Assembly (NCBI RefSeq): GCF_003334335.1
Contig: NZ_QOWQ01000044.1
Strand: one strand, 5' to 3'
DNA length: 35,113 nt
Source: Escherichia coli
Lineage (GTDB): Bacteria; Pseudomonadota; Gammaproteobacteria; Enterobacterales; Enterobacteriaceae
Under the pieces are notes generated by a model, which worked only from the letters and a program-made list of their open reading frames with translations, was not told where the DNA came from and searched no databases. Positions 13,827 through 13,925 of the stretch are shown here, one piece after another. Position 1 is the first letter of the stretch; the number at the start of each line of letters is the position of its first letter. Position numbers and translations under genes: made by a program.

Positions 13827-13925
13827 TGCCTGATACGCTGCGCTTATCAGGCCTACAAGTTCAGCGATCTACATTAGCCGCATCCGGCATGAACAAAGCG
13901 CAGGAACAAGCGTCGCATCATGCCT
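13827..13925. repeat. REP elements between lacA and cynX (convergent ends)
   Basis: tgcctgatacgctgcgcttatcaggcctac followed by a second degenerate REP-like unit that contains the cynX stop codon. Confidence 0.8.

Follow-up and report, generated by a model that had tools for sequence, protein, structure and literature searches.

The convergent genes lacA and cynX of Escherichia coli meet at a short spacer carrying palindromic repeats, one of which touches the cynX stop codon. The questions raised by this locus are what these repeats are, how one of them came to lie across a stop codon, and whether they end the transcripts of both operons. We consider it probable that the K-12-type lacA-cynX spacer is a decaying BIME with an older half REP set against cynX, with the origin and functions proposed below.

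Anatomy of the lacA-cynX spacer

The window, which is the whole stretch of 35,113 nt that was analysed, is the K-12-like E. coli lac/cyn region, containing in order the mhp genes, lacI-lacZYA, cynXST-cynR, codAB, the prp genes and the yah genes. Its colinear counterpart in MG1655 is 339,951-375,063 (reverse strand), from which it differs by a few substitutions and by one BIME unit fewer at 25095-25370. As originally predicted, lacA (+) and cynX (-) converge; according to the ORF list and the MG1655 annotation, their stops at 13813-13815 (+) and 13918-13920 (-) are separated by 102 nt. Motif searches found more than 20 REP units in the 35-kb window. HMMs were built from the REP copies outside the studied spacer and then run against the window. 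E. coli REPs of types y, z1 and z2 are 35, 29 and 37 nt long, respectively, and without their GTAG the REP transposase does not recognize them (PMC8266576). Three REP-derived pieces were identified in the spacer (an intact z1, a y remnant and a half REP), arranged as follows:

13813-13815, + strand: lacA stop codon TAA (ORF list, MG1655 annotation)
13816-13827, no strand: A/T-rich 12-nt gap from the lacA stop to the REP stem (read from the sequence)
13827-13856, - strand: intact z1-type REP (z1 HMM, folding, inverted repeat I1)
13857-13872, no strand: head-to-head BIME linker of 16 nt, AAGTTCAGCGATCTAC (colinearity)
13873-13889, + strand: y-type REP remnant (comparison with full y copies, y HMM)
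13890-13908, no strand: 19-nt spacer, TGAACAAAGCGCAGGAACA (loop and inner part of the predicted hairpin)
13909-13924, - strand: half REP, a z2/y-type arm (exact k-mer, random-segment control, HMM)
13886-13924, no strand: predicted hairpin spanning the cynX stop (folding; outer stem of 7 bp, GGCATGA/TCATGCC)
13918-13920, - strand: cynX stop codon TGA (ORF list, MG1655 annotation)

The clean REP of the original prediction is readily recognized. The z1 HMM, built from five other copies in the window, matches 13856-13827 (-) end to end (E=2e-9). The GTAG required of a REP (PMC8266576) immediately precedes the palindrome on its 5' side, at 13856->13853 (minus strand). The unit at 13827-13856 is a palindrome of family length that matches the other copies, and it is extragenic and multicopy. 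Its inverted repeat I1 (11 nt, 91% complementary) folds into a hairpin at 13828-13852 of -13.3/-13.9 kcal/mol (z -4.2/-3.3), with a stem of 8+2 bp and four G-C pairs in the outer stem. Immediately past this hairpin, the cyn strand of the 13816-13827 gap reads AAUUUUUAUAAU.

The z1 unit (-) is followed by the 16-nt linker and the y remnant (+). The linker has colinear counterparts in E. whittamii and, as GAGTTCAGTGCTCTAC (17331-17346 and 17531-17546), in two intact BIMEs of the window. The whole order matches the BIMEs at 17301-17381 and 17501-17581 as well as E. whittamii, and identifies the array as a BIME. Colinearity with the same two BIMEs indicates that the sequence at 13873-13889, ATTAGCCGCATCCGGCA, is a y REP minus 18 internal nt. 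Compared with the full y copies (GTAGGCCGGATAAGGCGTTCACGCCGCATCCGGCA), aTTAGCCG is joined directly to CATCCGGCA, and the missing 18 nt are GATAAGGCGTTCACGCCG. The GTAG has become TTAG in this strain; O157 and EC11 retain GTAGGCCGCATCCGGCG. The y HMM matches at model positions 23-35 only (13877-13889, E=0.07). With TTAG, 18 nt gone, and stem and palindrome lost, the sequence at 13873-13889 is no longer a y-type REP. The REP likeness of the adjoining 13890-13908 was not significant in the random-segment control. The sequences compared allow more than one origin of this 19-nt spacer and more than one order of evolutionary events; in an alternative MAFFT alignment, the E. whittamii y REP aligns to both the E. 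coli y remnant and the half REP.

The sequence crossing the stop codon is a different piece. On the cynX strand, the gene ends ...AAA GAG GCA TGA TGCGACGCTTGTT, and the REP-like arm, GGCA-TGA-TGCGACGCT, takes in the stop and the last Ala codon. The exact 12-mer TGATGCGACGCT (13920->13909, cynX strand), which contains the TGA, is identical to one arm of the long REPs (z2 type). Within the window there are exactly six copies of the 11-mer GATGCGACGCT, and the five besides this one all lie in bona fide REPs. When the z2 arm was aligned semi-globally to 13900-13930, the arm at 13909-13925 reached a score of 13; 20,000 random segments drawn from non-REP parts of the window gave 11 at most. The other arm, 13886-13908, was not significantly REP-like in the random-segment control (p about 0.06-0.39), and a whole degenerate z2 unit at 13886-13924 was rejected on this ground. 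nhmmer matches only positions 22-35 of the z2 model at the stop (E=0.14 over 70 kb). With a single matching arm and no GTAG, 13909-13924 does not rank as a z2/y-type REP; since only one side is REP-like, the demonstrable element is a half REP, whose conserved arm starts at or within the stop codon. Both this piece and the y remnant are expected to be immobile relics because they lack the GTAG needed by the REP transposase.

The claim that the cynX stop is embedded in a REP-like element is supported by this half REP, together with a y REP in the same register in E. whittamii. The second degenerate unit that was said to run through the stop needs correction. REP-like sequence does cross the stop, but the pieces number three rather than two. 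The obvious candidate for that unit, the y remnant at 13873-13889, ends 28 nt short of the stop and so cannot be the one that runs through it; the piece at the stop is a half REP only. The original prediction was largely right, borne out in part, with an anatomy that differs from its description.

A hairpin spanning the stop is also predicted. It is framed by the 7-bp inverted repeat GGCATGA (13886-13892)/TCATGCC (13918-13924), which places the stop codon in the stem. Folding energies of -16.9 kcal/mol (z -2.3; 3 of 200 shuffles did equally well) and -15.7 kcal/mol (z -3.1) were predicted for the cynX and lac strands, respectively. Most of the distal arm comes from the y-remnant tail (TGCC); the other three bases are flank and resemble that of the 17381 copy.

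The array is an already known kind of element and fits the REP/BIME family and its known positions. Its z1 unit is full-length, including the GTAG. As in other E. coli BIMEs, such as those at 17301-17381 and 34856-35113, z1, a 16-nt linker and y follow each other, and the array sits between convergent gene ends, as many REPs do. Unlike in intact BIMEs, just one unit of three has remained whole; the y unit is short of 18 nt and has no palindrome left. Also unlike the REP family, what lies at the stop is a GTAG-less half arm that overlaps the coding sequence by 3-7 nt, and it is oriented like the y remnant, whereas BIME units alternate. REP/BIME clusters between convergent genes and REPs near stop codons are already well described in E. 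coli; the lacA-cynX array is one more example, in the best-studied locus of the genome. Rfam gave no match inside the spacer. The MG1655 annotation carries no REP feature across the 35 kb; as it is blank even at obvious BIMEs, it is uninformative on prior annotation of this site.

Relatives and alleles of the spacer

The genome-collection comparison covered five cynX loci, E. whittamii being the only non-coli Escherichia among them. Its orthologous lacA-cynX spacer is 85 nt long. There, cynX ends GAG GCA TAA, directly followed by TGCGGCGCGAACGCCTTATCCGGCCTAC, and a y REP (model positions 1-29 of 35, E=4e-9) reaches the last base of the stop codon in the register of the E. coli half REP. The outermost bases of this y REP are replaced by the end of cynX; past it come the same linker, then z1, then lacA. 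The stop-side arms of the E. whittamii y REP and the E. coli half REP are identical at 12 of 14 positions. The presence of a y REP against the cynX stop in E. whittamii indicates that a REP at this place is older than the split of the two species. No E. whittamii-type spacer allele was found in E. coli, where the best match is 83.5% identical.

The cynX ending was compared in more distant relatives. In Yokenella, cynX ends GAG GCC TGA with no REP at the site, and the sequence past the stop is homologous to non-REP sequence of Trabulsiella. Past a conserved Trp, the CynX tails of the homologues range from 3 to 16 residues, among which the E. coli tail VKEA is ordinary. Because Glu-Ala-stop occurs in the REP-free Yokenella and the tail length is ordinary, the ending GAG-GCA-TGA is, judged from these homologues, native to cynX. 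This native ending resembles the outer REP arm (GCCTGA), so that the REP match appears to run through the stop. An ancient REP that donated the Ala codon and the stop had been suggested by Yokenella GAGGCCTGATCCAGGCCTC, which has the look of a collapsed z REP. This idea was rejected as unsupported, given the ordinary CynX tails and the homology of the Yokenella downstream sequence to Trabulsiella non-REP sequence. The cynX 3' flanks of Hafnia, Citrobacter amalonaticus, Pluralibacter and Salmonella are unrelated.

The Yokenella regensburgei stop codon lies inside a perfect 9-bp non-REP hairpin, AGAGGCCUG AUC CAGGCCUCU (-16 kcal/mol, z -4.2; L010 3646-3664). This is a second lineage with the cynX stop in a stem, reached independently.

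Three alleles were distinguished among 5,426 complete E. coli genomes. The K-12-type spacer (allele A) is found in 3,065 of them. In allele B (612 of 5,426), the BIME gives way to a perfect 13-bp hairpin downstream of lacA, TGTCGGATGCGCCATTGGGCACATCCGACA. Read on the cyn strand, this hairpin folds with -24.1 kcal/mol ahead of UUUAUUU and is thus a canonical intrinsic terminator. In allele C (532 of 5,426), lacA is entirely missing. The other genomes gave mostly no match or a partial match. All three alleles retain AACAAGCGTCGCATCA at the cynX stop, and their common sequence, AACAAGCGTCGCATCA plus cynX, begins only at ~13905. The half REP therefore predates the differences between the alleles, and its hairpin partner does not.

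The palindrome of allele B has REP-tail-like arms (TGTCGGATGCG..., L002 1444-1473). At the lacY-cynX junction of allele C (L006, L007 225-315; compare window 13139-13181), a hybrid hairpin follows the lacY stop, its left arm being the lacY-lacA REP and its right arm the allele-B hairpin. Allele C thus looks like a lacA deletion by recombination between two REP-like repeats. In strain VL40 (L003), an IS1 lies just past lacA and an IS2 beyond it, and the sequence after them is no longer the K-12-type spacer. The lacA 3' flank appears to be a rearrangement hot spot. Furthermore, cynX is annotated as frameshifted in the O157:H7 strain 1130 (L004), as is lacA in E275 a (L014), so that either neighbour of the spacer can be dispensed with in some lineages.

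It had been proposed that the 3' end of cynX and the repeat co-evolved. The comparison with strains lacking the array does not bear this out. Alleles B and C keep the half REP and lose its pairing partner, and no structure is left at their stop (z +0.3). Within allele A, 14 of 102 spacer positions are variable among seven strains, including positions in the hairpin arm and in the half REP. The change 13890 A>G in the hairpin arm, which weakens the outer stem in O157/EC11, creates an A-C mismatch on the cynX strand, and neither it nor 13911 C>A in the half REP is compensated. The Glu-Ala-stop of Yokenella without a REP and the ordinary CynX tail are also at odds with co-evolution. Uncompensated variation and a non-conserved partner form the pattern of a relic. 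One observation counts against a relic, namely that the hairpin at the stop outfolds most shuffles (z -2.3/-3.1). REP decay leaves half copies fused to gene ends, and these can be misread as co-evolution.

Two other readings of the half REP have to be weighed. It is extremely unlikely that its REP likeness arose by chance, leaving the z1 and the y remnant as the only real REPs. The match covers just 12-14 nt with E=0.14 in the whole-window search, the opposite arm is not significant, and the heptamer across the stop (GCATGAT) is native, as GCCTGAT of Yokenella shows. Yet none of the 20,000 random segments reached the observed score, the exact 11-mer is elsewhere in the window confined to REPs, the match adjoins true REPs, and the E. 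whittamii y REP arm occupies the same register with 12/14 identity. Selection, instead of linkage to cynX, could be the reason why no allele has lost the half REP. The half REP might be a domesticated arm, whose stem from the stop codon would tune CynX termination or protect the 3' end of the cynTSX mRNA. The distal partner would then have been swapped among alleles (the y tail in A, other sequence in B/C), with a y REP abutting the stop in E. whittamii. We regard such domestication as very unlikely.

For the decaying BIME, the following origin is proposed. A REP would have been inserted or retained just 3' of the cynX stop in the ancestor of E. coli and E. whittamii. The distal half of this stop REP would later have been replaced via REP-REP rearrangements, giving at least three E. 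coli alleles. The half REP at the cynX stop would now be a relic with a small effect at most.

Transcript ends and translation

The original prediction also held that one palindrome array could end both convergent transcripts. Two features outside the spacer bear on this:

13708-13726, - strand (cyn strand): terminator-like hairpin with a T-run, within the lacA coding sequence (consensus scan; outside the REP array)
14187, + strand: Rho-dependent termination region, lac-sense, antisense to cynX (Adams et al. 2021, PMC7815308)

The consensus terminator scan flagged no site in the lacA-cynX spacer on either strand. In the lac direction, CCUACAAG comes after the z1 hairpin and no more than UCUUUG after the stop-codon hairpin (past 13924); a G+C-rich hairpin with a direct U-tract, as in an intrinsic terminator, does not occur there. 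In the cyn direction, AAUUUUUAUAAUUU comes after the z1 hairpin (past 13828), a site that escaped the scan solely on account of the 9-nt loop left by the perfect 8-bp stem. The z1 hairpin is terminator-like on this strand, and a one-directional role is possible, to judge by this tail. The hairpin at 13708-13726 is a candidate end for a cynTSX read-through RNA.

Published maps of Rho-dependent termination place the end of lac-sense RNA further downstream. A Rho region was reported at MG1655 360877 on the minus strand (score 4.2, p=2e-5), upstream/downstream reads being 55/16 in untreated cells and 45/55 under bicyclomycin (Adams et al. 2021, PMC7815308, supplementary file 2). This position corresponds to ~14187 in the window, roughly 270 nt past the cynX stop, in a mapping that is coarse (800-nt windows) and was made with the lac and cyn operons uninduced (PMC7815308). 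A Rho region ~270 nt past the array indicates that lac-sense RNA reads through the palindromes and is halted by Rho. The curated Term-seq 3' ends include none at 3608xx-3613xx, lac and cyn being uninduced there as well (PMC7815308). Literature searches on cyn/lac transcript ends returned no usable paper. The cyn and lac transcripts reportedly overlap at their 3' ends; if so, the array is traversed. The notion of one array ending both transcripts thus finds no confirmation and is partly contradicted by the absent lac-strand U-tract and by the Rho region beyond the array.

The palindromes might still be a shared bidirectional end module of the lac and cyn operons, in which either transcript would run past the nearer hairpin and stop at the farther one, or in which polymerases pause and collide at the hairpins. 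Hairpins are indeed predicted on both strands, and a somewhat U-rich tail lies past the distal one on each, AAUUUUUAUAAUUU after z1 on the cyn strand and UCUUUG after the stop-codon hairpin on the lac strand, so that a designed pair of ends is conceivable. Allele B, with its canonical -24 kcal/mol hairpin and U-tract on the cyn strand, suggests that an end signal is wanted here, and hairpins between convergent genes can make polymerases pause or collide without terminating alone (bioRxiv 10.1101/2022.10.23.513370). However, the scan flags no terminator in the spacer, the lac-strand z1 hairpin lacks a U-tract, and the stop-codon hairpin is not conserved among alleles. The bicyclomycin-sensitive lac-sense region ~270 nt downstream, in antisense cynX, implies read-through, as does the overlap that is said to exist between the two transcripts. 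On the cyn strand, the terminator-like hairpin sits inside lacA. Collision would moreover need simultaneous induction by lactose and cyanate. Such a module is therefore judged quite unlikely.

The comparison with known intrinsic and bidirectional terminators of convergent genes (e.g., ynaJ-uspE; bioRxiv 10.1101/2022.10.23.513370) points the same way. The spacer resembles them in having hairpin-forming sequence in both transcripts and a U-rich run past the z1 hairpin on the cyn strand. Unlike them, it has no A-tract/U-tract symmetry around one hairpin, the lac-strand U-tract being missing, and published data point to Rho-dependent termination further downstream. The canonical terminator hairpin is a feature of allele B and not of the allele studied here.

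The REPs could instead act on translation. According to PMC12306157 (section 8, citing Liang, Rudd and Deutscher 2015), a gene is translated less when a REP follows its stop codon at no more than 15 nt. Both genes have this geometry, with a gap of 12 nt between the lacA stop and the z1 stem, and the cynX stop inside a stem. Hairpins might thus stall the terminating ribosome and lower output at lacA (z1 stem) and at cynX (the -16.9 kcal/mol hairpin, in whose 5' arm the stop lies); the lacY-lacA REP is placed likewise, 8-9 nt past the lacY stop. As in the REPs described there (PMC12306157), 12 nt separate the lacA stop from the z1 stem, and the cynX hairpin is of similar stability. Unlike those REPs, the hairpin at cynX is a strain-variable chimera of half REP, spacer and y-remnant tail instead of a canonical REP; it is weakened in the O157-type allele A and absent in alleles B and C. 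Any effect on CynX would consequently be dispensable. As an account of both genes, ribosome stalling seems unlikely.

The lacY-lacA REP itself (13139-13181) is a GTCGGA variant of y that begins within the 15-nt limit. It gives a sub-threshold match to Rfam naRNA4 (33 bits against a gathering score of 59.5).

REPs generally act as 3'-exonuclease barriers for RNA terminated downstream. From the anatomy of the spacer, the pattern among alleles and relatives, and the published Rho region, we infer the following roles for the REPs of the decaying BIME. The z1 hairpin would form in both convergent RNAs. On the lac RNA, it would most likely be a barrier to 3'-5' exonucleases after Rho-dependent termination downstream and, lying 12 nt past the lacA stop, may reduce the synthesis of LacA as well. 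For cyn RNA, the same hairpin with AAUUUUU may be a weak intrinsic terminator. The three natural alleles (a REP array, a canonical terminator hairpin, and a deletion of lacA between two REP-like hairpins) form a ready comparison set for the function of REPs at gene ends.

Other repeats in the window

Further repeats were noted outside the lacA-cynX spacer. The tandem BIME array at 25095-25370 counts three units of 93 nt here against four in MG1655; BIME copy number thus differs between very close strains. Near-identical copies ~200 nt apart, at 17290-17385 and 17490-17585, each contain a z1-linker-y BIME and the flank GCGGCTGGAATTGCC. Taken at their sequence, they are a local duplication between codA and cynR. 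A further y-type REP, missed by the motif searches, was detected by the y HMM at 28117-28149 (-) with E=6e-7.
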